From NCBI GenBank assembly GCA_963823665.1, contig CAWGMQ010000010.1:480001-544000 (forward strand): DNA of 64,000 nt, written 5' to 3'. The stretch is from an uncultured Planctomycetota bacterium. GTDB taxonomy: Bacteria; Planctomycetota; Planctomycetia; Isosphaerales; Isosphaeraceae. How positions within the stretch are numbered: position 1 is the first letter of the stretch; the number at the start of each line of letters is the position of its first letter. Below are positions 3,686-52,224 of this stretch, one piece after another. The notes below the pieces were generated by a model, which had not been told where the DNA came from, did not search any database, and saw nothing but the letters and a program-made list of their open reading frames with translations. The translations under genes and the position numbers were made by a program.

Positions 3686-5467
3686 ATGAGTGATCAAGTT
3701 GCGGCTGTGGGCGGAACGGATCATGAGGTTCCTTCGCTCCCCTTTGGCGGTCGACTCAACGCCGTCAAACACGGGCTCACGGCGAAGACTCGGGTTTTGC
3801 CGGGTGAGGACCCTGTTGCTCTTCAGGCTCTGATCGATGGGTTCAAGGCGAATGCTCAGGCGAAAAACTTGATCGAAGAGAGCTTGCTCGAGATGGCGGC
3901 GAGGTGTTTCTGGCGGGCCGGGCGTGCTGAACGGCTCGAAGCGAATCGGGGGACCATCGACATCGTGCGGCGAGCGGAGACCGATGCGGCTCGCGCGGCA
4001 CAGGAGGTCGCGGCGCTGGGGAGTCGCCTGTTCTTTGACCGCCGCGGGCCGTGGCAACTGTGGCCCTGGCGAGACTATTACTCCAATCCGCCACGGAAGT
4101 CGGCGGCGGGTGATGCCGAAGACCCAGATGGGCCGCGCAAGGTGGTTGATCAGCTTGAAGCGACCCGAGAGGGGGTGAATTGGCTGCTGCGCGAGTGGTA
4201 TGAGATCCGGAAACCGCTCGAGGCTGGAGGCGAGTGGCTGCCGTGCCAGAAATTCAAGGTCATCCGCTTGCTGGGAAAACAGCCGCTCGATGCCATTCAT
4301 GATGACGAGGTCGCCCTGGTATTCCTCGCCAACCACGCCATCGCGCCGGAATTCTTCTCCGCCTTCGACGAGCTCAGGTGCGAGATCGACGAGAACCGGC
4401 TCGAGCAGCACATGGCTCAGCTCGAGCGAGAAGAGCGGAAGGCCATCACACCCGCGGATGAGGAGGCGGGACGCGCAGCACTGCTGGCGATCGTGGATAA
4501 GGCCATCGAGCGGCTGTTGAGGCTCGGAGCCGAGCGCGGGGAGGTCGCCGATTTCCTCCGACAGCTTGAAAGTCAAACACCGAGCGACGCGGGGACGAAG
4601 GCGGTCGCTCCCGTTCAGCGGCATCTTGGAGATTGCAACCGGCTGATGCTAAGGAACATCGACGCTTTTCACCGGCTACGCCGGAATGAGGTCGAACGGT
4701 GGGGGATTATCCGGCAAGAGCGAGAGCAGAAGAGAGAGGAAGCACGACGCAAGCGAGAAATGGGGCCTGACCCGCGACTGATTGTGGATGCGCGCGGGAA
4801 GGTTCGTCAGGCCGAGGGCTACCGGTGGAAGCTTCAAGAAGGCCTGGCACGGTACGAAGCCGTGATTGGGCGGCAACCGTGCGAATTGGATGAGGGTTGG
4901 AGTGAGTCTCCCTGGAACGATGAGCGGGATCGGGAGGATCACGACGGTACGTCGACGCAGGCCGAGGCACAGTGCGCTCTTGGAGGCCAGCAGGGCGGGC
5001 TGCCGGGGGACGGCGGAACCGTGCCTGTGAGCAATCTGATGCGGGCAGATTATCAGTGTGAAGCGGCGGGTGTGGGGGTGATCGATTTCGTTCCCGTGCA
5101 GTTTACGGGGAAAGGAGATGCGGCGAATCTACAAAACGAGATTGTGGGCGACTTACCGATCGGTGGTGTGAAGGCCGGGCGACAGGAACGCGGCGAGACT
5201 CAACGCCAGAAGGACGTCTCCGGCGATGAACTACAGGCGTCTTTGCCTGAAGAGGGTTGCGATCGGCCGGCTCGTGTGGCGGAGCCGCTTTCCAAGCGGG
5301 AGAGACGGCGGCGGCAACGGGAAATGGCGAGGAACGAGTTTGAGCGGCGGCGCGGGGTGATGCCGAGTGAGCCCAATGTTTCAGTGGGCGAGATACTCGA
5401 CATCGCTCACGGATTGTTGCCGAACGCGGTTGCGTTTCGTCGGAAACACGGGCCGAGGTCGCCGTGA
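3686..5467 (+). CDS. Hypothetical 'NAVKHGL...LPGED' family protein, copy 1 (593 aa)
   Basis: Long uninterrupted ORF with collinear homology to 50095-52224. Confidence 0.85.
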   Translation: MSDQVAAVGGTDHEVPSLPFGGRLNAVKHGLTAKTRVLPGEDPVALQALIDGFKANAQAKNLIEESLLEMAARCFWRAGRAERLEANRGTIDIVRRAETDAARAAQEVAALGSRLFFDRRGPWQLWPWRDYYSNPPRKSAAGDAEDPDGPRKVVDQLEATREGVNWLLREWYEIRKPLEAGGEWLPCQKFKVIRLLGKQPLDAIHDDEVALVFLANHAIAPEFFSAFDELRCEIDENRLEQHMAQLEREERKAITPADEEAGRAALLAIVDKAIERLLRLGAERGEVADFLRQLESQTPSDAGTKAVAPVQRHLGDCNRLMLRNIDAFHRLRRNEVERWGIIRQEREQKREEARRKREMGPDPRLIVDARGKVRQAEGYRWKLQEGLARYEAVIGRQPCELDEGWSESPWNDERDREDHDGTSTQAEAQCALGGQQGGLPGDGGTVPVSNLMRADYQCEAAGVGVIDFVPVQFTGKGDAANLQNEIVGDLPIGGVKAGRQERGETQRQKDVSGDELQASLPEEGCDRPARVAEPLSKRERRRRQREMARNEFERRRGVMPSEPNVSVGEILDIAHGLLPNAVAFRRKHGPRSP

Positions 5468-5486
5468 TTCGTGCGAATCGTTGGCC

Positions 5487-5600
5487 CCTCATACGGTGCG
5501 CGGGAATGGTCGCTTGCCCGGGTCGGGGGGCGGAGCCCCTCCTACGGTGCGCGGGGATGGTCGCTTGCCCGGGTCGGGGGGCGGAGCCCCCTCCTACGGG
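5487..5600 (-). repeat. Two tandem ~51-bp units containing a GTAG-type REP-like motif
   Basis: CCTC(A/C)TACGGTGCGCGGG(A/G)ATGGTCGCTTGCCCGGGTCGGGGGGCGGAGCC occurs twice plus a partial copy. Revcomp reads GTAGGAGGGG(G)CTCCGCCCCCCGA. Confidence 0.8.
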
Positions 5601-5727
5601 TTGGGGCGAAAGGGACGCGCGGCGGCTCTCGCTGGTGCGCGGTGCTTCGAGCGGATCACTGGCGGGTGACGCCCTTCAGCCCGCCTGGCCCCCCCTTTTG
5701 GAAGGGGGGGAACAGGACCGGCGCCGG

Positions 5728-6308
5728 CTAACGGGTTGGCTGGTCCAGGAAGTTCTTGAGCAGCTTGATGCCTTCGAGCGTCAAGAAGCTCTCGGGGTGG
5801 TACTGAACGCCTTCGAGTGGATATCGCTTGTGACGCACACCCATGATTTCGTTCTGATCGGTCCAGGCGACGACTTCGAGGTCGCTCGGGCAGCGTGCCG
5901 GGCTCGATCACCAGGCTGTGGTATCGCGTCGCCTCGAAGGGATTGGCGATTCCACGATAGATTCCGCGGCCGTCGTGGTGGATCCACGAGGTCTTGCCGT
6001 GCATGATCCGGCCGGCCCGCACAACCTTCGCTCCCAGGGCGTGTCCGATGCATTGATGGCCCAGGCAGACGCCGAGCAGGGGGATCGTGGGGGCGAATCG
6101 CGTGACGACGTCGTTCGAGATTCCCGCCTCGACGCGGAGTGCACGGACCCGGAGAGATGATCAAGTGGCTGGGCGCGAGCCGCGCGATCTCTTCGACCGT
6201 GCACTGGTCGTTGCGCACGACTTTCAGGTCGACCGATGCGTCGATCTCGCCGAGCCGCTGCACGAGGTTGTAGGTGAACGAGTCGTAGTTGTCTACCAGA
6301 AGGATCAT
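5728..6308 (-). CDS. trpG: Anthranilate/aminodeoxychorismate synthase component II (glutamine amidotransferase), frameshifted
   Basis: [49 protein letters not shown], spread over three frames. trpG versus pabA cannot be separated. Confidence 0.85.
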
Positions 6309-6579
6309 ACGCAATCGCCCGGCGAGGCCGTGCAAACGGCAGAAGGGAGGAATCCGGACGAATCCTGGCTAACCATCTGGATCGTAACGTGCGGGCGATC
6401 CGACCGGAAGAGTACCCGTCGTGAATTGCGGATGTGCGGAGGGGCCGCGTGTTATCCTTGATCTTGGGACGCCCGGCGCCAGGCGGAGGCTCGGTCTGCC
6501 CGTGCGCCCGTTGGGAGCGATCACGGTTGCGAACTTCTGCCGGCCGTACGCCGGGGCCGGAAAAACAGGGAGGACCAGC

Positions 6580-7076
6580 ATGTCGAGCGCAATTGTCGCG
6601 ATGAGCCTGACGTTGGCGGCGAACGCCTTCGGCTTGGGCCACGATGATGCGGTGGTACAGCCCTCATGATCCCGAGCCGTACTTGCACATCCTGCCGGAC
6701 GGGCCGGGCGACGGTTGGGGGTTTCCCAACGGGCAGCCCGATGGCTACGGCTGGTTCGATCACGGCACCTTTCTGCCGTTAGGCGCCAACCGGATTCCGG
6801 ACTACTTTTTCCCGCGATATTTCGCGGCCGTGCCGGCGCAGATGTTTCCCCAGACCTATTACAACTGCTTTCGAGACACGCGGCCAGCGATACATACCCT
6901 ACGCCGGGGGCGGAGGCGAGCACCCGATGGGCGGACCGCCGCTGGCGTCGTCGCACCTACCTGTCTCCCCGTACACGGCGAACCCGGATAATGTTCCGCA
7001 GGTGGAGCTTCCCAAACTGAACGGTGTGATCGAGGCAGCACCGCTCTCCTCCGGCAGCTCGGGCTTGACGCCGTGA
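6580..7076 (+). CDS. Secreted Pro/Gly/Tyr-rich hypothetical protein, frameshifted
   Basis: GGAGG RBS and signal-like MSSAIVAMSLTLAANA. Continues PDGPGDGWGFPNG...YFFPRYF...RGQRYIPY in shifted frames. Confidence 0.6.
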
Positions 7077-7384
7077 TAACCGTTGAACGTGCAAAGACCC
7101 TGACGGGGAAGTTCGCCCTCCCGGGATCGATCAGAGCGCCAAGAGGCTCACCGGGAGGTTTGGACCCTCCCGGGTGCTTGTCAAAGTCAGGAGCGTCTTT
7201 TAGCATGGAAGAGAGTCATCACTGCTGCCGGACGTGCCTGAACTGATCGGTCGTTTCGGGCGAAATACCGATTGATGTGCGCAGCCTCCTGGAATCGGGC
7301 GAACATTCCGGGAGGCTCGTTCGTAGCAGACGCTAGAGCTTTCCGCGTTCATCGACTTTGTATTTCAACCGGAAGGTCTGCTTA

Positions 7385-8349
7385 ATGAGTTCGGAAGTCA
7401 TCATCGAGACGAGGAATCTCACCAAGGTCTATCGCGATTTCTGGGGTCGGCCCAAGGTTCAGGCCCTCAAGGCACTTGACCTTCAGGTGTATCGCGGCGA
7501 GATCTTCGGCCTGCTCGGGCCCAACGGCTCCGGGAAGACGACCACGATCAAGCTCTTGCTCGGGCTGCTGTTCGCGACCGAGGGCGAGGCGTTGATCTTC
7601 AATGAATCGACGACGAGCGTCGCCAAGAACGAGCGGATCGGCTACCTGCCAGAGGAGTCGTACCTTTACAAGTTCTTGAACGCCGAAGAGACCCTTCATT
7701 TCTATGGACGCTCTGTTCAAGATTTCTGGAGCGGAGCGGAAGAAGCGGGTCGGCCAGTTGATCGACATGGTGGGCCTCACCAGTGCGAAGCATCGCCAGC
7801 TTCGCGAGTATTCGAAGGGTATGCAGCGGCGCATCGGGCTGGCCCAGGCGCTGATCAACAACCCCGAGCTGATTCTGCTCGATGAGCCGACGTCGGGGCT
7901 CGATCCGATCGGAACTTCGGAAATCAAGCAGTTGATTCGCGACCTGCGCGAGCAGGGCAAGACGATCGTCCTTTCAGGGCACTTGCTTGCCGACATGCAG
8001 GATATTTGCGACCGGATTGCGATTCTTCATCGTGGCGAGTTGAAGGAGATTGGCCGCGTATCGGATCTGCTGACCGTTCAGGACGTGACGCAGATCAAGG
8101 TGCGCAATCTCTCGGCGGCGGCGATCGAGGAGATCCGGGACGTGATCCACCGGCATGGTGGAGTCGGACGTGCTGGTCGATCACCCCACGACGACGCTCG
8201 AGGAACTGTTCTTGCGAATCGTGCAAGAGAGCGAGCTTCACCCGGGACGGAGGAAGGTCGCGCACGACATGGCTCGTCCGGCTCCGCCGCGGCCGGGCGA
8301 ACTTGCCGGTGCTCGAGGAAATCCGGGGCGCAGGGACGATTACAGGTAG
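7385..8349 (+). CDS. ABC transporter ATP-binding protein, frameshifted
   Basis: Walker [10 protein letters not shown], signature [15 protein letters not shown], Walker [14 protein letters not shown]-terminal TLEELFL. Shifts near 7710 and 8160. Confidence 0.92.
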
Positions 8350-8598
8350 CGTGCCGGCAACCATCGAACGAGGGACAGGTGAGACACCTTCGGTCTGGCT
8401 AGCGGCCGCCCGAAAGCACCCCCTCCGGCCCCCCCTTCGAGAGGGGGAGCTTGGCGCAAGCTACAAGGTACGCGGTGAGAAATCAGGGTTGAGTCGATCA
8501 GGGTTGAGTCGATCGCAGGTTTTGAACGGCTCGGGCCTTGGCGGGGCCGTAAACTGCGAGTTGACCGGACAGACGTGACAAGCAACAAGAGGAACTGA

Positions 8599-11389
8599 AT
8601 GTCCGCGTTCTTGACTTCTTTGCCGATTTTGTGGGCCCAGGTGAATGCTGCGAGCAATCCTGCACCGAGGATGTCGCAGCGCGCGCTGGCCGCGATGACG
8701 TGGCTTTTCATAGCAAGTGATCCCAGCGTCGGCGTGCGGGATTCGGTGCTCGGTGGGATTCTGACGTGGATCAAGGCGATCAGCCTGATCTGCCTGGTGT
8801 GCTGGGTGGTTTCGTGGCTGATCGTGGGGATCAAGGAACGGATCATCGCGCAGGGTCGGTGGTTTGATTACCTGGGATTGGCGGCGGCGGTTCTGACGCC
8901 GGCCTCGGTGGCGCTCAAGGTGCTGGAGGATGCCGGGCGGGTTACGCGGTACAGGATTGGTGCGTATCCGCTGACCACGATCGCGGCGATTCTGTGCATT
9001 CTCTTATTCGCGGCGTGGGCCGAGATGGCGACGGTCCGGACGATTCGCCGGGTGGGCCGGCGACTCGGACTGGGTCGTGCACATTGCGCTGCACCTCGCC
9101 CTGGCGCTGGGTGTGGCGATCGGGTTCTACCTGTATCAGAGCGGGTTCTTGCTGGCGATGGTGCCGTTTGACCCGCAAACGAGGACGCGCCCCGTGCTGA
9201 ACTGGATCGACGGGCTGAATTTCGGGGTGCGATTCGGCGGGACGTACATGGGATTTGTGGTCTTGTTCCGGGTGGCGTGGGAGCTTGTGCGCGAGTTGTT
9301 CTTGATTCGAGGGCGGAGGCTGTATTCGATTGCGAGGCTGAGCATTTACGAGTCGAATCGGAAGATGTGGGCACCGTGGGTTGTGGGGGTGGTGTTTCTG
9401 CTGGTGCTTGCGTTCACGCACTGGTTTCTGGAGCCGCCGCGGCCGGCGGAGATGGGCCGGCTGTACGTGGGGACGCTGAGTCTCTTGTGTTCGATCTTGC
9501 TGACGGTGATGGTCACCATCATGACGCCGCTCTCGTTGCCGACGGACATCCAGCAGCAGACGATCTACACGGTGGTTTCGAAGCCGGTGCGGCGGATCGA
9601 GTTGATCTGGGGGCGGATGCTGGGTTACATGTTCATCGTCACGGTGCTGATGCTGGCGTTCGGGGGCATCAGCCTGTTCTATTTGCAGCGGACGGTCGGC
9701 GGCGAGCTGGCGAGCATCGAGCTAAAGGCCGAGAAGGCCAAGCCGTATGACCTGGTGCTCTTGCCACCGGTGAAAGACGTTGCCAGCCTGCCCCAGAGAG
9801 GGAACAAGCTGTTTGTGGTCGGGACTGTGGGAGATGAGCTCCACTTCCGCATTTTCGGCTTTGACGGCAAGATTGTCCTGGACACCGCCGAAAAGAAGCT
9901 GACGGAAAAGACCGAGCAGATCGAGAGTCTCAAGAAGGACCTGACCGCCTTATGGCCCCCGCACTCGCTCGCGACGACGGAGAAGAACTATCTGGTTTCC
10001 ACGGTCGCCTCGGTCGTCGGTTACTCGCTCAAGGATGTGAATATCAGCGATTACAAGCAGCTCATGGACCAGGCGGACCAGCTTCGCGTGCGGATGCAAG
10101 CGAGGGTTCCGATCAAGGGCTCGCTGTCGTTCCTCGACTCGCATGGGGTGCACAAGGCGGTGGGGATTGACGTGGGGGCGGAACAGCCGATGAAGGAGCC
10201 CAGGAGCCATATCGAGGGAGCGACTCCCTCGACGGCGATCTGGCGGTTTGGCCGCGAGGTGCCGGACCCGTTCGCTCCGCCGGGGCGTTTCATCCCGCTG
10301 GACCGGCAAATCCCGGTTCAAGATTTCATTTTGCCGGGCACGGTCGAGTGGGAGCTCGATCGGGTTTTCACGCTCGCCACGCAGATCGATGCCGCGCGTC
10401 GGGAGAAGGAACGACCGGGAGTGGCGACGGCCCGGGTGGCGCAGCTCGACGCGGCGATCAACCGGAATCAGCAGGAGCTGACCAGAGCGCGGAGCGATTA
10501 TGAGGCTCTGCTGAAACGAAGGGACGACCTGAGGGCGCATGCGGCCGAACTGGCGGCGAGCGGCAAGAACGGCGAGGCTGCTGCTGCCCGGAGGCAAGCG
10601 GCGGCGCTGTCGTCGCCTCCGATCAAGGTCGAGATGACATTCAACGTCTATCGCACGACAAAGGGGAAGATCGGCGAGCCGGTTTATGCGGAGATCGAGG
10701 CGATCAATCCGATGACCCAGCGAAAGTTTGAAGGCGACGTCTTCCCGATCAAGGAATACTACACGAATTCGGTGACGCTGCCGGCGTCGATTCTCGCGGG
10801 CTCGGACGGGTGGCTTAACGTGCAGATTCGCTGCCTGACGAATTCACAGTATCTCGGGATGGGAGAAAGCGACCTGTATCTGCTGTCGTCGTCCGGGAAC
10901 TTCGGCTTCAATTACATGAAGGGTCTATTCGGTGTGTGGCTGCAAGCGATGGTGCTGACGGCCATCGGGGTCTTCGCTGGTACGTTCCTGAGCTGGCCGG
11001 TGGCCCTGCTGACGACGATCTTCTTCTTTGTCGCGGGGCAGCTCGCGTTTGCTTTCCTCGTGGACATCTCGAGGCAGGCTGTGCTGGGTGGCGGGCCGTT
11101 CGAGTCGCTGATCCGGATTATTTCGCACGATAATCAAATGAGCGAGCTGACGCCGACCGGGGCGGTGGTGCTCGCCAAGACGCTCGATTCGCTGGCGATG
11201 CCGGTGATGTCGAGGGTGGTTTACCTCGTTCCGAATTTCCAGGCGCTGGACGTCAGCAACCTTGTGGCCGACGGGTTCATGGTGAGCTGGCGGGTGATGA
11301 TCTCCAATCTTCTGTTGGCGGTGGGCTACGCCCTGCCGTTTTCGTTCGCCGGTTACCTCATCTTGAAGAACCGGGAGGTCGCAGCATGA
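8599..11389 (+). CDS. ABC-2-type transporter permease with large extracytoplasmic region, frameshift near 9065
   Basis: Multiple TM segments, LPTDIQQQTIYTVVSKPVRRIELIWGR motif, C-terminal LKNREVAA. Follows the ATPase gene. Confidence 0.85.
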
Positions 11390-12939
11390 ACGCTTCGAGC
11401 AATTTCAATCGCAAGCTGATCTATGGAATGATCATCGTGGGCATATTCGCCCTGATGTTTCCGTACACGGGCTGGCTGGCCGAGGAAAAGAAGCGGCGCG
11501 ACCTGGGGGAGGCGGCGATCGGGCAGATCGATACCGGGAGCTTCATGATGAAGCTGTTCCTGCTGGGCGGATTCCGCGGGATCGTCGCCGACATCCTCTG
11601 GCTGCGTGCCGAGGAGCAAAAGAAAGATCACGATTGGGACCGGCTCAAGACCACGGTGGAGCTGATCACCAAGCTGCAGCCCCACTTCCTCTCGATCTGG
11701 ACATTTCAGGGGTGGAACCTGGCCTACAATGTGTCGGTCGAATGGGACGCGCCGGAGGATAAATACACGTGGATCAAGGGTGGGATCAAGTTCCTGGAGC
11801 AAGGCGTAGCCAAGAACCGGCGGTCGCCCGACTTGATCTGGGACACGGCCTGGACGTACTACCACAAGCTGGGCTTTTCCGACGAGTCGATCATTCTGCG
11901 CCGTCTCTTCTACGACGACGAAGACCTGCCGTTCAAGACGTTTGAGGACCCCAAGACGGGGCAGCCGGTGGAGTCGAAAGACAATTTCAAGCTGGGTTAC
12001 GGCTGGTTCGGGCGAGCGGTCAAGCTGGTCGATGAAGGTGCCGGTCGGATCTCGGGCGGCACCTCGAGCGAGATCCGTTATGTGGACGCGACGCCGCAGC
12101 GGAAGGGGCGCCCGGACGACATCGCGTTCCGGTCGATGCCCGCGCACGCTCAGACCCGTTATGCCTCGGGCCTGGAGAAGATGAGCATCTACGGCATCGA
12201 GGCGACGTTCGGGGAAGTTGCCAAAAATGAGTGGTTTCATGCGCTCGAGGAATGGAAGGAACTGGGCGATCACGTTTTTATATCGTTCAATGAAGAGTTG
12301 CGCGACGGCAAGATGGTGCGGGACAAGGTCAAGCTGAATGACGTGGTCGACCCCGAGCGACTGAAGGCCATGCCGAAAAACCAGGCGTACTGGACCAACC
12401 GCTGGTCGGATCAGATGAACTTCCGTTACTGGAGGCAGAGGTGTGAGGCGGAGGGGCATACCAAAGCTGTTCACGCGCGCCAGCTTTTCTACGAAGGGAC
12501 GAAAGCGTACAAGACCGGTGATTTCCCGGTCGCCGAAGAGAAGTTCAGAGACGGGCTCGCGGTCTGGAAGTCGCTGATGGATGATTTTCCCGTTTACGGC
12601 GACGATGAGTTGCTCAAGAGGGAAACCGGTCAGATCGTCAAGCGGTACCGCAAAGTGCTGCGGCAGAACCTGTCGCCGATCCCCGACGACCTGCCGTTCA
12701 AGGAGTACTTGAAGCTGGTCGAAGGCGACAACAATTTTGACCCGTTTGACACACTCGAGATGATTGGCCCGGTGGGTACGGAAAGTCCGATGGGGAAGCC
12801 CGGGGCTGCATCGCCGTCTGGCCCGACCCCGAAAGCTGAACTCGAAGAGCAGAAGAAAGCCAAGGCCAAGCCTGGGGTAGTAGCGCCGTCTGCCCCGACT
12901 GCGGTACCTCGCGCTGGCGAACCCGCCAAGAAGTCTTAG
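11386..12939 (+). CDS. Conserved membrane-anchored hypothetical protein of the ABC operon
   Basis: ATGA overlap with the permease. N-terminal TM, LLGGFRGIVADILW...WNLAYNVS motif, helical body. Confidence 0.8.
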   Translation: MNASSNFNRKLIYGMIIVGIFALMFPYTGWLAEEKKRRDLGEAAIGQIDTGSFMMKLFLLGGFRGIVADILWLRAEEQKKDHDWDRLKTTVELITKLQPHFLSIWTFQGWNLAYNVSVEWDAPEDKYTWIKGGIKFLEQGVAKNRRSPDLIWDTAWTYYHKLGFSDESIILRRLFYDDEDLPFKTFEDPKTGQPVESKDNFKLGYGWFGRAVKLVDEGAGRISGGTSSEIRYVDATPQRKGRPDDIAFRSMPAHAQTRYASGLEKMSIYGIEATFGEVAKNEWFHALEEWKELGDHVFISFNEELRDGKMVRDKVKLNDVVDPERLKAMPKNQAYWTNRWSDQMNFRYWRQRCEAEGHTKAVHARQLFYEGTKAYKTGDFPVAEEKFRDGLAVWKSLMDDFPVYGDDELLKRETGQIVKRYRKVLRQNLSPIPDDLPFKEYLKLVEGDNNFDPFDTLEMIGPVGTESPMGKPGAASPSGPTPKAELEEQKKAKAKPGVVAPSAPTAVPRAGEPAKKS

Positions 12940-13006
12940 TCAGTTGAGGGGTGTCTCCGCGAACCGGCTGTCAGTTGTTCGACCGGGGCTTCCGCCCGCC
13001 GATTCC

Positions 13007-16726: not shown

Positions 16727-16765
16727 TCGGTCCAGGCGACCGATTGACAACGTGTAAGCCCTCGG

Positions 16766-40494: not shown

Positions 40495-40509
40495 TCGCCA
40501 GCTCAGCAA

Positions 40510-42805: not shown

Positions 42806-43792
42806 CTACTTGACCAACCCCCGCTTGCGCAAATAATTAAGGATAAGCTTATCAAAAGGATACTGATTGCTCGTGAAGATATACGTGATCCCCCGCTGCG
42901 TGCACCACTCCTTGATCCCCCCCACAAACGCGTTCAAATTCTCCTTGTACCGTTTGATCAAGGGCGCGCTCACCGTAATCTCGGCAATCTCGTCGTCCTC
43001 GCAGTCGACCAGCCGCAGATCCCCTACCATCGTCGGGTCGATCTCCTCCTGCGATAGGACTTGAATCACGTAAATATCCATGTTCCTCGCCAGCAGGTAC
43101 CGCAGCGCATCCTGATACCCGCGTTTATCCAGAAAATCCGAGATCACCACCACCACCCCTTTGCCTGCATGCCGGATGGCGAACTCCCGGGCCGCCGTGG
43201 TCAAGTCGCTCGAGCCGGTCGCCTTCAACTGGTCCAGGTACTGGACCACCCGCCACATCTGCGACCGCCCGCGGATGCCATGCAGCCCCCGCTCCAGCCG
43301 CGCGCTGAACGTGTCGACCAGGATCCGGTCATGATTGCAAAGCCCGATGAACGCCAGCGCCGCGGCCACCTGCTTGCCATACCGCAGCTTCGTCGGCGTC
43401 CCGAAATCCATCGACAAGCTGGTATCCAGCACCGCGTAGACGTGCAGGTCCTCTTCTTCCAGAAAGAGCTTGAGAAACAACTTGTCCAGCCGCCCATAGA
43501 CATTCCAGTCGATGTGCCGCATGTCGTCGCCGACGGCGTAATTCCGATGCTCGGCAAACTCCACCGACGAGCCCCGCCGCTTGCTCTTCCGCTCACCCTT
43601 CATCCGCCCCACGAAGATCCGCTTGCTCACCAGCTCGAGCTGCTCCAGCTTGTGCAGGAACTCCGGCTCCAGCAGCGGTCCGGTCGAAGAAGTAGCAGGC
43701 GAGCTTGCCGCCGCCCCCTCCGCGGCCTCCGCGCCAAGAGCCTTGCCTGTCGCGCCCAGTTCGCTCACCGCCGTGGTTTCTGTTCCGCTCAT
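42806..43792 (-). CDS. DUF58 protein
   Basis: GSSVEFAEHRNYAVGDDMRHIDWN, DTSLSM, ISDF. Confidence 0.92.
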   Translation of the reverse strand: MSGTETTAVSELGATGKALGAEAAEGAAASSPATSSTGPLLEPEFLHKLEQLELVSKRIFVGRMKGERKSKRRGSSVEFAEHRNYAVGDDMRHIDWNVYGRLDKLFLKLFLEEEDLHVYAVLDTSLSMDFGTPTKLRYGKQVAAALAFIGLCNHDRILVDTFSARLERGLHGIRGRSQMWRVVQYLDQLKATGSSDLTTAAREFAIRHAGKGVVVVISDFLDKRGYQDALRYLLARNMDIYVIQVLSQEEIDPTMVGDLRLVDCEDDEIAEITVSAPLIKRYKENLNAFVGGIKEWCTQRGITYIFTSNQYPFDKLILNYLRKRGLVK

Positions 43793-43868
43793 TTCAGTCG
43801 GTTCCTCGGTCTGCCTCAAACACCCCGCGGGTGGGCTCTTGAAAACTCATGTGAAGAAAAGAAGAAAC

Positions 43869-44258
43869 TCACCCGTAATAGTCCGAAACCCAGAACAGCA
43901 TGAGCATCACGCTGACCGCCACGCCCAGCCCGACCAGCCACGGCACAATCGCCGCCAGGAAAATCAGCCAGCGCAGCTTGAGCTTCAGCGGCCGCGTCCG
44001 GTGCATGAAGCCCAGCGCCGTGAACCAGCTCTCGAGGATCACGAGCGAGCCTGCCGCCGCCGTGCAGATCGCCAGCTCCGGCTCGTTTCGCCAGGCCAGG
44101 AGCGAGCCGCCCAACAGCACCGCGCACAGCCCGATCAGACACGCCAGGTCGCCCGCCGTGAAGACCAGGCGCTCGGGTTTGGGAGGAACATAGTCCTCGG
44201 TTAGTGCCGGCGGCGGGTCATATCGGTCACGCATGGCTTTCCTGTTCCGAAGCATCAA
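43869..44258 (-). CDS. Small membrane protein in the MoxR operon
   Basis: Overlaps the MoxR stop codon. Three hydrophobic segments. Confidence 0.65.
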   Translation of the reverse strand: MMLRNRKAMRDRYDPPPALTEDYVPPKPERLVFTAGDLACLIGLCAVLLGGSLLAWRNEPELAICTAAAGSLVILESWFTALGFMHRTRPLKLKLRWLIFLAAIVPWLVGLGVAVSVMLMLFWVSDYYG

Positions 44259-45283
44259 GCCACCGCGCGCTCTTCGGCCTTCTCGGGCACCGAGTCCAGC
44301 ACCTTGAGCAAGACCTCGTCGGGGTCAATACCCTCCGCCTGCGCTTCGAAGTTGAGCAGCACCCGGTGCCGCAGGCTCGCCAGATAAACACGCCGCAGGT
44401 CCTCGAAGCTCACGTTGAACCGCGCGTCCAGGAGCGACCGCACCTTGGCCGCCAGCACCAGGGTCTGTGCCCCTCGCGGACTGCTCCCCCACCGGATGTA
44501 CTTGTTCGTGACGTCGGGCGCAAAAGGCCCGCGTGGGTGCGTCGCCAGCGCCAGCCGGATCGCATAGTCCTGCACGTGAGGCGCCACGATCACTTCCCGC
44601 ACCAGTGATTGCAGCGTGATGAGCGTCGGCCCGTCCAGCACCTTCTCGGCCCGCGGCTTCTCCCCGCGCGTCGTGCGGTCGATGATCGTCGAAAGCTCCT
44701 CCCGCGTCGAATAGCCCACCACCAGCTTGAGCAAGAACCGGTCGAGCTGCGCCTCGGGCAGCGGATAGGTCCCCTCTTGCTCGATCGGATTCTGCGTCGC
44801 CATCACAAAGAACGGCTCCTTGAGCCGGTGGATCTTGCCCCCCACCGTCACCGAGTGCTCCTGCATGGCCTCGAGCATCGCCGACTGCGTCTTCGGCGTG
44901 GCGCGATTGATTTCATCCGCCAGCACGATCTGCGAGAAAATAGGCCCGGCCTGAAACTCGAAAACACGGCGCCCGTCAGGCAGCTCCATCACGATGTTCG
45001 TGCCGATGATGTCCGCCGGCATGAGATCCGGCGTGAACTGGATGCGGTTGAAATCCAGGTCCACCGCCTCGGCCAGCGTCCGCACCAGCAGCGTCTTGCC
45101 CAGTCCGGGCACGCCTTCCAGGAGCGCATGACCGCCGATGAACAGGCAGGTAAGCACACCGTGGACGATCTCGTCGTGGCCGACGATCACCTTGCCGATC
45201 TCACCCTTGACGCGATCATACGCCGTGCGAAAACCCTCAGCGCGGGCTTCGATCGATTCCTCGGGAAACGTGCTCATGCTCAT
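44255..45283 (-). CDS. MoxR-family AAA+ ATPase
   Basis: GVPGLGKT, RIQFTPDLMPADI, LADEINRA, TQNPIEQEGTYPLPEAQLDRF. Confidence 0.95.
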   Translation of the reverse strand: MSMSTFPEESIEARAEGFRTAYDRVKGEIGKVIVGHDEIVHGVLTCLFIGGHALLEGVPGLGKTLLVRTLAEAVDLDFNRIQFTPDLMPADIIGTNIVMELPDGRRVFEFQAGPIFSQIVLADEINRATPKTQSAMLEAMQEHSVTVGGKIHRLKEPFFVMATQNPIEQEGTYPLPEAQLDRFLLKLVVGYSTREELSTIIDRTTRGEKPRAEKVLDGPTLITLQSLVREVIVAPHVQDYAIRLALATHPRGPFAPDVTNKYIRWGSSPRGAQTLVLAAKVRSLLDARFNVSFEDLRRVYLASLRHRVLLNFEAQAEGIDPDEVLLKVLDSVPEKAEERAVA

Positions 45284-48200
45284 TGGGGACTGTCCTTTCG
45301 TTGAGGTGATTCCGCGTCTTTCTCTTTCTCTCGTTCTTCCCAGACACGTTGTTTGGCCTTGAGCAGCCGGTTGGTGTAGCTCTCCTTCTGCGGCGCTGCC
45401 GGGCCCACACCCATCCCGGGGCGTTCCACGGGCGCCTGCGCAGCCACCATCGGGCTCGCCCCTTCCGCCCCTTCCAGGATCGGCTCGCCAATCGGGCCTT
45501 TCGGAGAGTCGGCCGGCACAATCTGCGGAGACGGCTCGAGCCTTGGTGCGTTCCTGGAGCGATCGAGCTGCTCGTCCACCTCCGCCTTGCGGCTGCGCAG
45601 CTTGTCCATGTAATCGCTCGTTGTCGCAACCTCCCGCCCGGTCATCTTCTGCCATTCCTTGGCCATCGCCGTCATGATCGCGCCCCAGTCGATCGCGATC
45701 CTGCGCACGGCCACGTCTCCCAGGAACAAGCACGCGGCCATCCACAACAGCGTCGGCCAGAGCGGCGCGAACGAGCGGGGGTTGATCAGCCCGGCGTCAC
45801 GGCGGAAGTGGTCGTTGTCCTGCACGGTGCGCACCAGGTCGACTCGCCCGTCCGGCGTCTGCTTCCAGCTCCCCACCTTGCCTTCGGTCACCGAAGCCAG
45901 CGTCTCGAGCGTCGTCGGGTTCGACCGCAGCTCCCGGTACTCGTCGGAATAAGGCACCGACACCCCGGATGAGATCACCCCCTGCACGTTGTCCGGGCCG
46001 CGGTAGCCCAGGCTGATGAAGTAGTTCCCGCTCGCCTCGGCGTTATCCATCGTGCCCTCGTACCGCCCCGGCGCGGTCTGCACCAGCTCGATCGGTCCGG
46101 ATTTCAAGTTGGGATCAACCGTGTTCCCTCGGATCTGCAGGAAATTGAGGAATTCGTTGTTCTTGTCGAGCGCATCGACCACCACCTTGATCCGGCCTTG
46201 GTCCCGGCGCACGTTGAGCGTCAAGTTGCCGCGGTCGGCCGGCCGCATCGACCACCGGATCACCTGCGACCAGAAAGCCGTGTACGTCTTCCAGTCCGGC
46301 CAGGTCTTGGCCCAGCGGCCGCCGGCGTCCGACGTGAAAGCCACCGATCGCCCCAGTCCGTACGACCAGTGCGCCAGCACCGGGTTCAACTGCCCGGTCG
46401 GCAGCGGTGAGACAATCGGGATCTCGACCAGCTCGTTCTCCTTGGCCGACGTCAGCACCAGCCCGTTGATCGGCGGGAACTCTTCGCCCAGACCCATTAT
46501 CGGCTCGGTGATCGGGTAGTTCACCTTGGGCAGCCACGGCGTCGCTTGCTCGAAGATCAGCGGCCGCGAGATCGACCGTGCTTCCTTCTGATAGATCCTC
46601 GGCAGCGCCTTGGGGTTCGTCACCACGTAGAACCGGCCCTTCGTCTTGTTGGCCAGGTTCCGCATCACCTGGGTCGCGCCCGGATCATTCCCGTGGGCCG
46701 CCGTCAGCACCGCCGTCACTGTGATCTTGCTCGCCGCAAGCTGATTGATCACCCGCGTCGAAGGCGGCGTGGGGTCGCCATCGCTGATCACGACGATGTG
46801 TTTGCTCATCGCATCCTGCACCCCGTTGAGTCCCTTCATGGCCATCTGCAGCGAGGGGTCGAAATCGGGCATGTCCCCCGGCGTCATCCGGTCAATCGCC
46901 CGCAGCATGCTGGCGCGTCCCGTGCCGACTGGCCGCAGCGTGAACAGCCACGCTTCCTGGTTCTCCCAGTGCAACAGCCCCGCATAGTCGTAGCTCGAAA
47001 GCGCGCCGATCGCCGCCTTGGCAACCACCGCCTGCCAGTAGTTCCCTTCCGGAATCTCGCTCGCGTGCATGATCAGCGCCATCGCCCCGATGCCCTGCAC
47101 CTTGATCGCCTTGATCTGCATGTCCACCGGCAACGCCTTCTCCACCGGCGTGTTCATCCAGCCCCCCGCGCCGAAGCTGTCCGGCCCGCCGATCATCACC
47201 AGGCCGGCCCCCATGTCGTGGCAGTTCGCCGCCAGCAGCGCGTGCTGGCTCTCCGTGAACGCTTCCTTGGGAACATTCGCCAGGATCACGCTGTCATAAG
47301 GTTGAAGCTGCGCCAGGTCCGCCGGCAGCGGATCGCCGCCGACTCCCCCCGAGCCGTCGATCTTGGGCGCGCACAGCACTTTGACTTCGATCTCTTTCTC
47401 ACGCAGTGCTTTCACGAGCGTCTCATGCTCGTTGCGACTTCCCTCGATCAAGAGCACTTGCGCCTTCCCCCGCGCGTGCGTGAACCCCTCGGCGATGTTG
47501 TTGATCGCCCGCTTGTCGCCGCTGCCGGCGTCCGGTATGAACTCGGCCGAGAACGTATAAAAGTTCGGTTCCGTGATGAGCTGTCTCAGCGTGAACACCT
47601 TGACCCCGCGCTCGAGTTCGATGTGCTCCGGCTGCTCGTGGCCGGCCGCCGGCGCGCGACGGTCGTCCGATTTCTGGTAGATCTGCAGCGTGCCCGATGT
47701 CGGCTCCGCGGCGCGGATGACGACGTTGATATTCACCGTCTCGCCCTTCTTCACGTCGGGCGGGATCGACACCTTCTCGACCAGCACTTCGCTGTCATAG
47801 GAGTACTCGAGGGGCAGCACGTCGACCTCGACCCCCAGCGTCTTGGCGGTGAGTCCCTGCTCGAACAGGTTCCCGCGGTTCTCATTTCCGTCGGAGAGGA
47901 CGACGATTCGCCGCGCCGTGTCCTCCGGAAAGCTCGCCAGTGCCAGCTTCACCGCGGCGCCCAAGTCGGTGTTCTCGTGATCCACCGTGCTCTCATAACC
48001 GATCAGCGAAAGCTCCGACGGCGCCGGTGGCACTTCAACCCTCGGCTCCTTGCCGAAGACGACCAGCCCGGTGAGGTCGTCCTTCCACCGCTTCTTCGAA
48101 GCCTCGGTGATGTAGTTGAGCGCCAGCTTCTGCTGGTCCGCGGGCACGCTGTTCGAGACGTCGAGCAGGAAGATCGTGGCCAGCCGGTCCGACTTCCACA

Positions 48201-48426
48201 CCGTCTGTAGCTCGGCAAGCGCGAGAATCACCAGCGTGATCACCGCGGCGCGGAACGTGATCGCCAGCCCCCGCCGCACCGGGCCCAGCCCCGCCAGGCT
48301 GCGATAGCTCCACCAGACCAGGGGGGGCAACACGAGCGGGATCAGGATCAGGAACCACGGGTTGCCGGTCGAGAACGACCAGTTGCCCTGTAACATCGTC
48401 ATATCACTCCGTGGCGATCTCGTCAT
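45280..48426 (-). CDS. vWA plus glutamine-amidotransferase-like membrane protein
   Basis: LLDVSNS, LSDGNEN, GGPDSFGAGGW, LPVDM, ISDGD, GLGRSVAFTSD. Confidence 0.9.
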   Translation of the reverse strand: MTRSPRSDMTMLQGNWSFSTGNPWFLILIPLVLPPLVWWSYRSLAGLGPVRRGLAITFRAAVITLVILALAELQTVWKSDRLATIFLLDVSNSVPADQQKLALNYITEASKKRWKDDLTGLVVFGKEPRVEVPPAPSELSLIGYESTVDHENTDLGAAVKLALASFPEDTARRIVVLSDGNENRGNLFEQGLTAKTLGVEVDVLPLEYSYDSEVLVEKVSIPPDVKKGETVNINVVIRAAEPTSGTLQIYQKSDDRRAPAAGHEQPEHIELERGVKVFTLRQLITEPNFYTFSAEFIPDAGSGDKRAINNIAEGFTHARGKAQVLLIEGSRNEHETLVKALREKEIEVKVLCAPKIDGSGGVGGDPLPADLAQLQPYDSVILANVPKEAFTESQHALLAANCHDMGAGLVMIGGPDSFGAGGWMNTPVEKALPVDMQIKAIKVQGIGAMALIMHASEIPEGNYWQAVVAKAAIGALSSYDYAGLLHWENQEAWLFTLRPVGTGRASMLRAIDRMTPGDMPDFDPSLQMAMKGLNGVQDAMSKHIVVISDGDPTPPSTRVINQLAASKITVTAVLTAAHGNDPGATQVMRNLANKTKGRFYVVTNPKALPRIYQKEARSISRPLIFEQATPWLPKVNYPITEPIMGLGEEFPPINGLVLTSAKENELVEIPIVSPLPTGQLNPVLAHWSYGLGRSVAFTSDAGGRWAKTWPDWKTYTAFWSQVIRWSMRPADRGNLTLNVRRDQGRIKVVVDALDKNNEFLNFLQIRGNTVDPNLKSGPIELVQTAPGRYEGTMDNAEASGNYFISLGYRGPDNVQGVISSGVSVPYSDEYRELRSNPTTLETLASVTEGKVGSWKQTPDGRVDLVRTVQDNDHFRRDAGLINPRSFAPLWPTLLWMAACLFLGDVAVRRIAIDWGAIMTAMAKEWQKMTGREVATTSDYMDKLRSRKAEVDEQLDRSRNAPRLEPSPQIVPADSPKGPIGEPILEGAEGASPMVAAQAPVERPGMGVGPAAPQKESYTNRLLKAKQRVWEEREKEKDAESPQRKDSPQ

Positions 48427-48499
48427 CGACCATCAAACGGGGGTCGAAACGATCGGCCCCGGTTGCTACCTCGAGCGCTGCACGCCTCTCACATCATTT

Positions 48500-48526
48500 C
48501 ATTGTCGCCTTTCGCTCCGCGAAAGG
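48500..48526 (-). repeat. REP-like palindrome (intact copy of the IS target)
   Basis: Revcomp CCTTTCGCGGAGCGAAAGGCGACAATG, with a CCTTTCGC/GCGAAAGG stem. Confidence 0.75.
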
Positions 48527-48565
48527 AGCGTCCCCCCGTCACGAGCCTCTCTCAAAAGGCAGCCC

Positions 48566-49499
48566 TCACATCCGAAATCGTTGAACGCGATGATTGTTGG
48601 AATCGACGACCGACACATTTCCCTGGCTGTCAACCGCGAGAGCGTAGGGATTGAAGAGCTGCCCGGGCCCTCTCCCGGCGCTCCCCCACGTTCCCAGCGA
48701 TTTGCCCTCCAGGTCAAACTTCTGCACCCGGTGATTGCCGTACTCGCACACATATAGACAGTGGTCCGGGCCGATCGCCAGGTCGAAAGGATAACTCATC
48801 TGCCCCGGCGCGTCCCCGCGACCCCCATGAATTGAGCAGTTTTCCATTGGTGTCGAACACCTGGATCCGGTGATTGCAGCTATCGGCAACGAACAGCCGG
48901 TCCCGTTCGTCGATCGCCAGCGCCCGCGGCTTCAAGAACTCACCGGGCTCATACCCGTGGCCTCCCCACTGCCTCAGCCACTTCCCCTCCGGCGAGAAAA
49001 CCTGGATTCGATCGTTCTCACCGTATTCAGCGACCAGGAAATTCCCCGCGCTGTCAATGACGACGTCGGTCGGATACCCGAATCGCCCCGGAGTCGTTCC
49101 CTGCACGCCGTCGCCGATCTCGAAGAGGATCTTTCCCTCCGGCGAATAGATCAGCACACGATAGAAATGCGTGTCGGCCACCAGCAGCCGTCCCAGCCGA
49201 TCGACCGTCAGCCCACTCGGCCCGTCCACGTTGAATTCCGGAGTCGACCACCCGCGAATGTACTTCCCGTCCCGGTCAAACACCTGGATGCGGTCCGTCA
49301 GGTCCGCCAGATAAAGATGGTCCTTCGAATCAAACGCCGCCGTCCGCGGTTTGTGCAGCCGCCCGGGCTTGATGCCGTGAACCCCCCAGACCAGCTCCGG
49401 CGCCGACCCGCCCGGCAGATCGCATCCTGCCACGACGAAGAGCAAAACCACCAGCCCGGCAAGCTTCAGGGAGACTCTGGCACGCTCTCGCTTCCGCAT
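48566..49499 (-). CDS. NHL-repeat lipoprotein, frameshift near 48815
   Basis: VAGC lipobox and repeats such as DRIQVFDRDGK and NHRIQVFDTNGK. Confidence 0.88.
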
Positions 49500-49646
49500 G
49501 GGCGTTCAACCTGTTGACGTGACGTGGTGCGTATCCGCGACTTTGGAGCGGCAAACCCTTCAGGTAGAATCTACTGGCTCGGGTGCCTCGGACGCAAGTC
49601 CTAGGCTGTTCGTTTTCGGTGTCCGCGGTCGTGAGGATGCATTGCA

Positions 49647-49952
49647 ATGCCGGAGTGGAAGGCTGTCTGCCGTCTCGAGCAAGTCGCCGAAGGGCGGGGC
49701 TGTTCCCTCGACGCAGGCGGCGTGAGGCTGGCTGTGTTCCGTCAGGGAGACGAGTTGATTGCTCTCTCCGGCCGCTGTCCCCACTCCGGCGGCTCGCTCG
49801 GCCACGGCTGGATCGAGTCCGGCGAAGTCGTCTGCCCCTTGCACCACTGGCGGTTTCGCTTGACCGACGGCCGCTGCACGACAATCCGCGGCGAGTCCGT
49901 GCACAAGTTCCGCTGCGAGGCCCGCGACGACATGGTGTGGGTCGAGGTCTGA
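49647..49952 (+). CDS. Rieske [2Fe-2S] ferredoxin
   Basis: CPHSGGSL...CPLHHWRF. Confidence 0.88.
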   Translation: MPEWKAVCRLEQVAEGRGCSLDAGGVRLAVFRQGDELIALSGRCPHSGGSLGHGWIESGEVVCPLHHWRFRLTDGRCTTIRGESVHKFRCEARDDMVWVEV

Positions 49953-50094
49953 GCCGTGCCGGACCGACAGCCGAGTTCAACGTGAATGAATGAAGGAGCG
50001 GAGTTTTCCCAGCGCAAATGTTGCGCCACCTCGAAATTTGCCAATACGACTTGCTTCCCATCAGTCCCGGCTCGCGGCCCTCCAAACAAACACC

Positions 50095-52224
50095 TCACGG
50101 CGACCGCGGCCCGTGTTTCCGAAGAAATGCGACCGAGTTCGGCAAGATCCGCTGAACGCTGTCGAGTTTCGCGTCCACGGAAACGCCAGGTTCATTAGGT
50201 ATCACACCGCGCCGGCGCTCAAATTCTCGCCTCGCCATGTCTCGCCGCAGCCGCCGTCTCTCCCGCTTGGAAAGCGGCTCCGCCACCCGAGGCGCCACAA
50301 CACAACGCTCTTCGCCCAAGGACGCCGGAAGCTCGTCACCGCCGACGTCCTCCTGGCAGCCTAGCTCGCCCCCTTCGTGCCGCCAGGCCGCTAAAGCTTC
50401 GATCGGCGCGTCGCCCGCAGCCTCACTTGGTTCGTCGCCCACGATTTCGTTTTGTATTTTCGTCGCGGCCTCTTGTCCTGTAAGGGTTAAGGGAACGAAT
50501 TCGCTCGGCCCAGTTTGCGCCGAATCCATCGCTCCATCCCGGATTTCCCCCCGACCGGAGGTCTCCTCCTGCCGCCCGCCGTCCCCGAGTTCAATTCCCC
50601 CCGGCTGAATTGCACCCAAATCGTCCCCGCCAACCACGCGATCACCCGTCCCACCATCGACCCCATCGTCTCTCAACCTCGACCCGTCGATCTCGTTTTG
50701 TATATTCGTCGCGGGCTCTTGTCCCGTAAGGGTTAAGGGAACGAAATCGCTCGGACGGGCCTGCCCGAAATTCGTGGCCCCATCCCCGTTTTCCGCCCCG
50801 TCCACGGCGTCCTGATTCACCGCACCGTCAGCCGACACCCCATCCGCCCGATTGGTTCCCGGCGCTCCCTGAGCGTCACCACTCCTCGAAGCCGTCTCAC
50901 ACGCCCGACCGGCAATCGCTTCTGTATGTCCCTGGCTCTGCACGTGCGCAGCCTTCGCGCCCACATCACTCGGGCTGCCACCTGCGTAGCGCGCACCACC
51001 ACCGTCAGACGCACGCCAAGACGGACTCTCACAAGGCTGCGGCCCGCGCTCCGCCTTCCAGCGAGCCAAGCCTGCATCGAGGTCGCCGTCATACCCCTGG
51101 GCATCGCGCACGGTCCCATGCTCGTCAAGCACAAACCGTTCATCGACCATAATCCCGCGTTGTGCTGCTTCTTTCAGTCGTAGTCGTTCCCGCCGGGCCT
51201 TTCCCCAGCCTTCCTCGTCCCAGCGGTGCCATCTCTTGATCGTGTCGAGGTTCCGAATCACCAGCCGGTTGGAGCTCTCAAGATGACGCTCAATCTGCCC
51301 GACGTTCTTGACCTCCGCATCGCTCACAGTATTGGTTTCGACCATCTCGAGAATCTCGTCGCCTTCCGCGGCCTCGGCTTCGAGCCTCCACAGCCGCTCA
51401 ATCGCCTGGTCGATGATCTCCAGCAGCACGGCCCGTCCAGCCGCTGCATTCGCCGGCGTGAGCGCGCGTAGCTCCGGGCGCGAGAGCTGGCCCTCATAAA
51501 ACTTGACCCGGTCATAGTGGATCTCGCACCGTAGCTCGCGGAAGGCGGACTTGAAGACCGGCCTCATGGCATGGCTCGCAAGGAACACCAAGGCGGCCTC
51601 TCGATCAAAGAGCGCGTCGAGCGGCTGCTTGCCCAGTAAACGGGCGGCCGTGAGTTTTTGACAGGAGACCCATCCCTCTCCCGAATCAATCGGCTTCCTC
51701 ACCTCGCCTAGGCGGTCCAGCAGCCAGCGTCGGCCGGCGCGCGTCGCTTCAAGCTGGATGACCAACCTGCGCGGCTTATCCGGGTCATCGGCTACCCCCG
51801 AATCGGAGGTCCGCGGCTGCTTGTGCTCATAGTCCCCCGATGGATAGAGCTGCGATGGTCCCCTGCGGTCAAAGAGCAAGCGGTCGCCCAGCCCCTCTGC
51901 CGCCAGTGTCTCCTCAGCCGCCTGCGCCCGCGATCGCCGCACGATATCGCCGGTCACGCGGTTAACTTCCAAGCGGTTAGCACGCTCGGCCCGCCAGCAA
52001 GCCATCGCTGCCAGCTTGGCCAGATCTGCCTCGGCTTGATTTCGAACCTGATGACTCGTTGTGTACGCATCAATCTTCGCCTGAAGCTCCGCCGGATCCT
52101 CCCCCGGCAGAACCGGCGTCTTCGCCGTGAGCCCATGCTTGACCGCGTTGAACCGCGACCCCTTGCCGATCGACGCCCGCTGATCATTCATTCCGACCAT
52201 CGCCGAACCCTGCTGCACGCTCAT
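50095..52224 (-). CDS. Hypothetical 'NAVKHGL...LPGED' family protein, copy 2 (~709 aa)
   Basis: Paralog of 3686-5467. Start chosen from the matching leader ATGGTGA(T/G)GCGATGAG. Confidence 0.85.
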   Translation of the reverse strand: MSVQQGSAMVGMNDQRASIGKGSRFNAVKHGLTAKTPVLPGEDPAELQAKIDAYTTSHQVRNQAEADLAKLAAMACWRAERANRLEVNRVTGDIVRRSRAQAAEETLAAEGLGDRLLFDRRGPSQLYPSGDYEHKQPRTSDSGVADDPDKPRRLVIQLEATRAGRRWLLDRLGEVRKPIDSGEGWVSCQKLTAARLLGKQPLDALFDREAALVFLASHAMRPVFKSAFRELRCEIHYDRVKFYEGQLSRPELRALTPANAAAGRAVLLEIIDQAIERLWRLEAEAAEGDEILEMVETNTVSDAEVKNVGQIERHLESSNRLVIRNLDTIKRWHRWDEEGWGKARRERLRLKEAAQRGIMVDERFVLDEHGTVRDAQGYDGDLDAGLARWKAERGPQPCESPSWRASDGGGARYAGGSPSDVGAKAAHVQSQGHTEAIAGRACETASRSGDAQGAPGTNRADGVSADGAVNQDAVDGAENGDGATNFGQARPSDFVPLTLTGQEPATNIQNEIDGSRLRDDGVDGGTGDRVVGGDDLGAIQPGGIELGDGGRQEETSGRGEIRDGAMDSAQTGPSEFVPLTLTGQEAATKIQNEIVGDEPSEAAGDAPIEALAAWRHEGGELGCQEDVGGDELPASLGEERCVVAPRVAEPLSKRERRRLRRDMARREFERRRGVIPNEPGVSVDAKLDSVQRILPNSVAFLRKHGPRSP

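Follow-up and report, generated by a model that had tools for sequence, protein, structure and literature searches.

A genus-restricted intergenic repeat probably carried in frame in the linkers of a multicopy planctomycete protein family

Introduction

Rickettsia palindromic elements (RPE; Ogata et al. 2000, as described in PMC10969869) are palindromic repeats of about 150 bp that are found in many unrelated genes, where the in-frame insertion adds a peptide that is tolerated by the protein (PMC10969869). Repetitive extragenic palindromes (REP) are GC-rich stem-loops of 20-40 bp with a GTAG or CGTC tag, and they alternate in orientation within bacterial interspersed mosaic elements (BIME) (PMC3733652, PMC2817692); REPs inside genes have been reported, and REPs occur in Planctomycetes (PMC3733652). 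Intragenic copies of BOX and of the enterobacterial repetitive intergenic consensus (ERIC) can encode peptides, and miniature inverted-repeat transposable elements (MITE) can create in-frame fusions (PMC10969869). A literature search for such repeats in Planctomycetes or Gemmataceae gave only this general statement on REPs (PMC3733652) and no description of the core reported here. The present study concerns a 60-nt element that occurs three times in a 64,000-nt stretch of DNA (the window; contig CAWGMQ010000010.1, positions 480,001 to 544,000, of assembly GCA_963823665.1) from an uncultured planctomycete of the Isosphaeraceae, within two genes of a family marked by the N-terminal motif NAVKHGL. 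The element is likely to be one instance, embedded in a gene, of a dispersed intergenic repeat that is confined to the genus and has a non-palindromic core of about 50 nt. In one multicopy gene family this repeat occupies the linker-coding region in frame, where it is probably translated into a disordered spacer.

The closest known kind is the Rickettsia palindromic element, together with the intragenic copies of REP, ERIC and BOX. As in RPE (PMC10969869), the same short repeat is both intergenic and in frame, with 114 non-coding and 24 in-frame copies here. Unlike in RPE, the core has only about 50 nt and no conserved pairing, and the in-frame copies belong to one multicopy family and one frame and are often tandemly multiplied within the linker. 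High copy number, intergenic position, clustered composite arrays and lineage-restricted families are shared with REP and BIME; however, this core of about 50 nt is AT-richer than the genome, has a stem of at most 5 bp and lies in clusters that are always co-oriented. In contrast to REPs and their associated tyrosine transposases (RAYT), it is absent from all 11 Y1-transposase loci. The mosaic build of a conserved module with varying 5' and 3' modules resembles BOX and ERIC (PMC10969869, PMC3049150), to which there is no sequence relation, and which form stable hairpins whereas this core does not. Like MITEs, the repeat is small, non-coding, multicopy and lineage-restricted, but its terminal inverted repeats do not exceed 4 bp, and neither target-site duplications at the copies nor, among their neighbours, a parent insertion sequence were found.

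Occurrence of the repeat

The first-pass annotation of the window had placed three in-frame copies of the element in two NAVKHGL genes, and these were confirmed by pattern search and by the open reading frames (ORF). The features concerned are as follows.

5084-5143, plus strand: element copy 1, residues 467-486 of gene 1 (covariance model, 55.1 bits)
50689-50748, minus strand: element copy 2a, in frame in the linker of gene 2 (covariance model, 76.1 bits)
50443-50502, minus strand: element copy 2b, in frame in the linker of gene 2 (covariance model, 71.3 bits)
50688-50829, minus strand: first 142-nt linker module of gene 2, which carries copy 2a and is a direct repeat of 50442-50583
50442-50583, minus strand: second 142-nt linker module of gene 2, a direct repeat which carries copy 2b
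3686-5467, plus strand: gene 1, NAVKHGL-family paralogue, ORF of 593 aa
50095-52224, minus strand: gene 2, NAVKHGL-family paralogue, ORF of 709 aa with the ATG at 52224 taken as start

The pattern GATTTCGTT-N42-AACGARATY matches copies 1 and 2a and has no match in 100 shuffles, while copy 2b begins with GAATTCGTT. The encoded peptides are DFVPVQFTGKGDAANLQNEI, DFVPLTLTGQEPATNIQNEI and EFVPLTLTGQEAATKIQNEI, all in frame 0 of long ORFs, and the conserved core of copy 1 lies at about 5090-5140. The element is indeed duplicated in gene 2, since copy 2b follows copy 2a by 246 nt (82 codons) and each copy lies in one of the two 142-nt direct repeats, which have the same spacing and 75% identity. For this reason the earlier statement that the linker is otherwise unalignable does not hold throughout. 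Between the N-domain and the C-terminal tail, however, gene 1 and gene 2 can be aligned only around the element. The element was also described as AT-richer than its surroundings and as keeping rare codons; the GC content is 0.48-0.49 in the core and 0.65-0.67 in the flanks, and TTA, ATA, CAA and GTT are retained in all 13 strict copies.

These strict copies are the matches of a codon-degenerate pattern for [DE]FVP-x12-QNEI in the whole 16.46-Mb genome, where control patterns gave none; all 13 lie in seven close paralogues and have nearly identical codons, including the rare ones. When the first codon was omitted from the pattern, 19 copies were found, four of them outside the NAVKHGL family with unrelated flanks, and three of these four have TAA in the "peptide" frame. 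A sequence-only covariance model (R1) built from 17 copies yielded at least 150 matches in the same genome, all with E<=1.4e-7, and the gene 1 copy ranks only about 63rd among the R1 matches listed.

The consensus of the core is GTTCCC..TAA..CTT-N7-AAG..CG.C.AAT.TACAAAACGAA, about 50 nt. In copies outside genes, conservation begins sharply at GTTCCC and stops at ACGAA. The conserved blocks (GTTCCC, TAA, CTT, AAG, CG.C.AAT and TACAAAACGAA) are interspersed with variable positions, and this block pattern is shared by coding and non-coding copies alike, and by the two genomes of the genus. Coding copies have a core identity of 0.82 with flanks at 0.54/0.43, and non-coding copies one of 0.80 with flanks at 0.31/0.34. 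Overall, the flanks of the non-gene copies are at a random level of identity, while subfamilies share 5' and 3' modules. Readings of the core as a promoter, an extracytoplasmic-function (ECF) promoter, a Shine-Dalgarno sequence or a CsrA site were considered by eye, and none of them fits.

The strict core pattern has 127 matches in the genome of the window (G000) and 67 in the sole other genome of the genus (G029, the congener). In 119 other genomes of the family it has at most three matches each, which is at the level of chance since reversed-pattern controls gave up to two. Similarly, AATNTACAAAACGAA has 122 matches in the genome of the window, while 400 genomes drawn as a sample of the phylum have 0-2 apiece, again the chance level. 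From these genome scans, the repeat appears to be restricted to the genus.

Genomic location of the copies

A scan outside the NAVKHGL genes had been proposed as a check on the element, and it found copies in large number. A total of 143 copies were read, 96 distinct ones in a first sample and then 47 from 40 further loci (L320-L359); 114 of them lie outside family loci. All but one of these 114 (66/67 in the first sample and 47/47 in the second) fall outside every ORF that is 120 aa or longer and scores positive for codon usage; the sole exception lies where a secreted-protein ORF has been artefactually extended upstream. A stop in frame 0 is present in 71 of the 114 (40/67 and 31/47). These non-coding copies occupy long gene-free stretches, often in clusters, beside housekeeping genes such as those for a sulfatase, 3-deoxy-D-arabino-heptulosonate 7-phosphate (DAHP) synthase, a Mur ligase, an ABC transporter and FliF, and no transposase was seen among their neighbours. 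Clusters with several copies are always co-oriented (23/23 loci in the first sample and 6/6 in the second), and some are plain tandem duplications of 207-242-nt units. In one orthologous spacer of the two genomes of the genus, two copies are found against four. At one congener locus (L319, G029:C4:302226-303417), 5.8 tandem copies of a 207-nt unit, each with one core, were found with 92% matches. A CRISPR-like reading of the congener's six-copy array was rejected, as it is a plain 207-nt tandem repeat.

At the family loci, in contrast with the 114 other copies, 24 of 29 copies are in frame +0 of a long ORF, and most of the others are in broken paralogues or behind the gene. Among the 143 copies read, in-frame copies occur in the NAVKHGL family only and always in the same frame. 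Of the 40 loci in the second sample, 25 have a coding-looking gene within about 900 nt 3' of the core, but only 6 have one 5' of it. Therefore, the core may be placed at the 3' edge of longer non-coding units.

Constraint on nucleotides

Among the coding copies, all three codon positions vary to a similar degree, with entropies of 0.40/0.42/0.56, and the invariant run of these copies includes third positions. In the same paralogues, the control motif NAVKHGLTAKTxVLPGED varies nearly exclusively at third positions (0.12/0.02/0.66). No 3-nt periodicity was detected in the information profile of the core. As judged from these comparisons, the constraint acts on the nucleotides and not on the peptide, because the element and the control motif differ in this way. 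The first-pass annotation had likewise placed the constraint on nucleotides, and the more than one hundred non-coding core copies, often with a stop in the frame, agree with it; in the homologue DNA that was read, conserved peptides with freely varying codons were not encountered.

Comparison between genomes gives a similar picture. The QNE motif is present in none of 13 family loci from other metagenome-assembled genomes (MAG), whereas 9 of 13 loci in the congeneric MAG have a QNE-type motif, one to six per gene. The congener's usual peptide, DSLLLMGKEEKANIQNET, is unlike that of the genome of the window, although the nucleotide blocks are shared. Motif-bearing homologues also occur among proteins from ENA and JGI (P0014, P0044, P0063 and others).

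Palindrome and RNA structure

The element had been described as bounded by exact 9-bp inverted repeats and thus as a palindrome. A 10-nt exact complement does exist, but between arms of different copies; within the copies, Watson-Crick pairs number 7/9, 8/9 and 8/9. The general core retains only CGTT/AACG (4 bp) of the arms, and the outer five arm bases have identities of 0.76/0.73 in gene copies and 0.36/0.39, barely above random, elsewhere. Covariation of the arms, which was a proposed check, is absent, as the own partner pairs no better than a permuted one (1.79 vs 1.77 of 5 in non-gene copies and 3.92 vs 3.79 in gene copies). The 9-bp arms are therefore not a family trait, and the repeat is non-palindromic, so that the palindrome does not stand as a conserved principle.

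The predicted structures do not sustain a hairpin site either. RNAalifold gave the outer stem only on 19 copies (-4.64 kcal/mol) and no consensus pair on 117 copies. When single copies were folded against shuffles, one window copy had a z of -2.56 and the other two had z values of -0.82 and -0.72, while antisense folds reached z values of -2.2 to -2.7 in two cases. Rfam gave no match (E<=1) at the element in six loci. GTAG is present in some copies only, since most have GTAA, and it lies beside a stem of at most 5 bp (TCCTT/AAGGA) that is lost in subfamilies.

Conservation in blocks without base pairing weakly suggests that the core may be a sequence-specific protein-binding site. Conservation also has a periodicity peak at 10.5-11 nt (site-shuffle p ~0.04), which is a weak hint of protein binding from one side. 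Recognition by the encoded protein itself, as proposed earlier, seems less likely on the evidence of gene position and fold, since most of the copies have no linkage to the genes and no nucleic-acid-binding fold can be recognised in the protein.

Origin of the gene-embedded copies

Homology between the gene copies and one non-coding subfamily extends past the 60-nt element to a total of about 120 nt. When the family profile was compared with 30 non-coding loci, only the linker part (positions ~400-540) matched, and never the N-domain or the tail; therefore, the intergenic copies are not recognisable wrecks of genes, and their origin by decay of genes is largely refuted. In a tree of 106 distinct cores, most coding copies of the genome of the window (24) form one clade (97/96), which is embedded among that genome's non-coding copies and separate from the coding copies of the congener. 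The gene 1 type, with three copies, forms a second and distant clade, separate from the gene 2 copies.

A possible scheme may be described as follows. The repeat, or a composite unit of about 120 nt that holds the core, would have been taken up by the linker on at least one occasion, and in this genome probably on two; alternatively, linker and intergenic copies may have been exchanged. Multiplication may then have come about as modules of 246-510 nt were duplicated in tandem and the gene family itself was amplified. In intact genes the linker modules are spaced by 246, 384, 393, 411 and 510 nt, all multiples of three. The likeness of the copies would reflect the repeat's own sequence requirements and homogenisation within the genome rather than selection on the peptide, and the copies may serve as patches of homology where paralogues recombine. 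NAVKHGL paralogues exchange segments with 98-99% identity, and in one pair homology ends 4 bases short of the end of the gene 1 element. For C5/C11 it ends exactly at the last base of an element, and two further pairs break 44 and 90 nt from an element. The suggestion that the element is a recombination site thus finds weak agreement in two of four pairs and none in the remaining two.

Several observations weigh against the origin of the element from a dispersed intergenic repeat. The tree is weak, as it is based on 52 columns only. Flanking direct repeats of at least 4 nt, the expected trace of target-site duplication, occur in 6 of 67 copies against 5.5 expected (true unit limits may exceed the core), terminal inverted repeats past 4 bp are absent from the copies examined, and the core is found at none of the 11 Y1-transposase (PF01797) loci with 1.5 kb on each side. 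The in-frame copies lie in one gene family only, unlike the Rickettsia elements, and the direction of transfer from repeat to gene is one that we infer. One congener orthologue has no element upstream, but synteny ends there too, so that there is no clean pair of filled and empty sites. In addition, the coding score of the linker is 0.12-0.17, compared with 0.25-0.47 for typical genes, and its translation is a prediction. An apparent co-orientation of the core with the downstream gene (14 vs 5 loci in the first sample) was not upheld in the second (13 vs 12).

Alternative explanations

It could be proposed that the NAVKHGL gene is a selfish, gene-sized mobile unit whose putative protein binds or acts on the core in its own 3' linker-coding region, and that the intergenic cores are non-autonomous, MITE-like satellites. 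The family is multicopy (63 tblastn matches in its own genome) and its genes are duplicated as gene-sized units that begin 95-424 nt upstream of the start codon; six congener copies are 96-99% identical, with homology that starts within ~65 nt of each other, and among the family genes examined the motif appears only in the two genomes that also hold non-coding copies. As judged from the sequences, such a unit is nevertheless unlikely, for the 30 non-coding loci lack the N-domain and tail, the 5'-end sequence of the congener's gene unit has no match in the window, inverted ends and target duplications are missing, and the protein belongs to no Pfam or NCBIfam family and has no fold match to a nucleic-acid enzyme. 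If it did exist, it would represent a mobile-element protein without a known transposase fold, whose cis-sites double as codons. It is very unlikely, on the other hand, that the peptide [DE]FVP..L.G....N.QNEI is a selected short linear motif, with nucleotide identity arising from recent duplication and gene conversion between paralogues and the intergenic copies being decayed gene fragments. The 14 family proteins aligned, which come from several sources, all have QNE, and VP is conserved among them; the motif occurs up to six times per protein, and paralogues exchange nearly identical segments. However, variation is not concentrated at third codon positions, the rare codons persist in every strict copy, and the congener alters the peptide while it retains the nucleotide blocks. 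Moreover, the 114 non-coding copies have sharp limits of about 50 nt, unrelated flanks and, in 71 cases, stops, with no domain remnants beside them, and the region is predicted to be disordered.

A structured hairpin of RNA or DNA that the 9-bp arms close, and that acts in mRNA or single-stranded DNA, has hardly any likelihood. The outer stem on 19 copies, the stable fold of one window copy and the two antisense folds speak for it, whereas the larger set of 117 copies has no consensus pair, the outer arms show no covariation and are near random outside genes, two of the three window copies fold like shuffles, and Rfam has no match at the element sites. The suggestion that the copies are sites of a dedicated, shufflon-like site-specific recombination, by which the C-terminal parts of paralogues are reshuffled, is scarcely credible. 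Homology between paralogues does stop at the 3' end of the element in two of four pairs, and the number of copies per gene ranges from one to six. Yet the copies are direct and never inverted, both within genes and in clusters (23 + 6 multi-copy loci), no recombinase gene lies beside the NAVKHGL genes in the window, the remaining two pairs break away from the element, and ordinary homologous recombination between repeats explains the data. Overall, a dispersed repeat embedded in the linker is the preferred explanation.

Implications

With a lineage-specific intergenic repeat lying in a protein linker, the tempting misreading of a palindrome-encoded peptide, or of a protein that binds its own gene, is removed. 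The repeat would be a planctomycete and non-palindromic addition to the short list of repeats that have turned into coding sequence, and it suggests how repeat DNA can build up the disordered linkers of a multicopy family and alter their length. In annotation it should be borne in mind that "conserved motifs" in linkers of this sort may be nucleotide repeats, and attention is needed for the repeat-rich islands of 1-4 kb between the housekeeping genes of these 16-Mb genomes. The wide occurrence of the N-terminal motif of the gene family and its multicopy habit leave a small chance of a partnership between the protein and the core, as far as sequence can tell.

The NAVKHGL family and neighbouring repeats

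The open frame of gene 2 extends past the ATG at 52224, up to 52377, and its product matches a 709-aa protein (P0026) of the same contig. The products of gene 1 and gene 2 have 43% identity over an N-domain of about 400 residues and 56% over the short C-terminal tail. In the AlphaFold2 model of the gene 1 product, a helical N-domain (residues 28-400, high predicted local distance difference test (pLDDT) score) is followed by a linker predicted to be disordered (residues 404-531, pLDDT <50) and a short helical tail with helices across 537-588. An example of a linker peptide of the family is FVPLTLTGQEPATNIQNEI. Searches of the NAVKHGL proteins against Pfam and NCBIfam gave no match, and neither did a Foldseek search of the predicted fold against the PDB at E<=0.001. 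NAVKHGLTAKTxVLPGED is a strongly conserved N-terminal motif of the paralogues. The N-terminal ~65-90 residues with NA[VIL][KR]HGLTAKT (L161-L294) are present in many copies per genome in Bryobacterales/Terriglobia and in Phycisphaerales MAGs, with single or few matches in Dehalococcoidia, Chloroflexi, Bradyrhizobium and Bathyarchaeia. In two metagenome proteins (P0062 and P0065), a NAVKHGL-family domain is fused to an S-adenosylmethionine (SAM)-dependent methyltransferase.

The six near-identical gene copies of the congeneric MAG occupy different loci (L136-L139, L143 and L160). In most of them homology sets in near locus position 3250, some 200-250 nt before the start codon; a copy may hold as many as six linker modules, and the longest ORF has 1387 aa. 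In this respect they resemble a proliferating mobile unit. Upstream of gene 1, a tandem array at window positions 2785-3262 consists of about ten copies of a 45-nt unit that contains a GGGGGC/GCCCCC hairpin and GGAACCGTT, and the homology between gene 1 and the C8 paralogue starts at 3262, the end of this array. A second array, downstream of gene 1 at 5484-5599, has 2.3 copies of a 51-nt unit.

Other repeats adjoin the core. A second dispersed module, GGGTCGGAGACCCGCGCCGAACA-like, borders some intergenic cores (3' flank in L040; 5' flanks in L077 and L079), and it is apparently translated as ...GDPSGARDPRRT... in the linkers of four family proteins (P0012, P0014, P0017 and P0063). NAVKHGL linkers thus seem to be mosaics of several repeat families. 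Weak matches to the Acido-Lenti-1 RNA of Rfam (L025:816-861 with 24.9 bits and L024:1878-1923 with 23.2 bits, against a gathering score of 37) lie a few hundred bases from intergenic cores. One gene-free island holds, upstream of a core, a member of a repeat family of about 430 nt (L067:1-430), which has at least 20 matches in the congener at 72-96% identity. Simple AT-rich repeats (GGATTAGGATTAAGATTA... and TTTTGGATTTTGGATT...) adjoin cores in GC-rich intergenic islands, for example at L025 ~1600-1700 and at L073 ~2300-2340 and 3820-3860.

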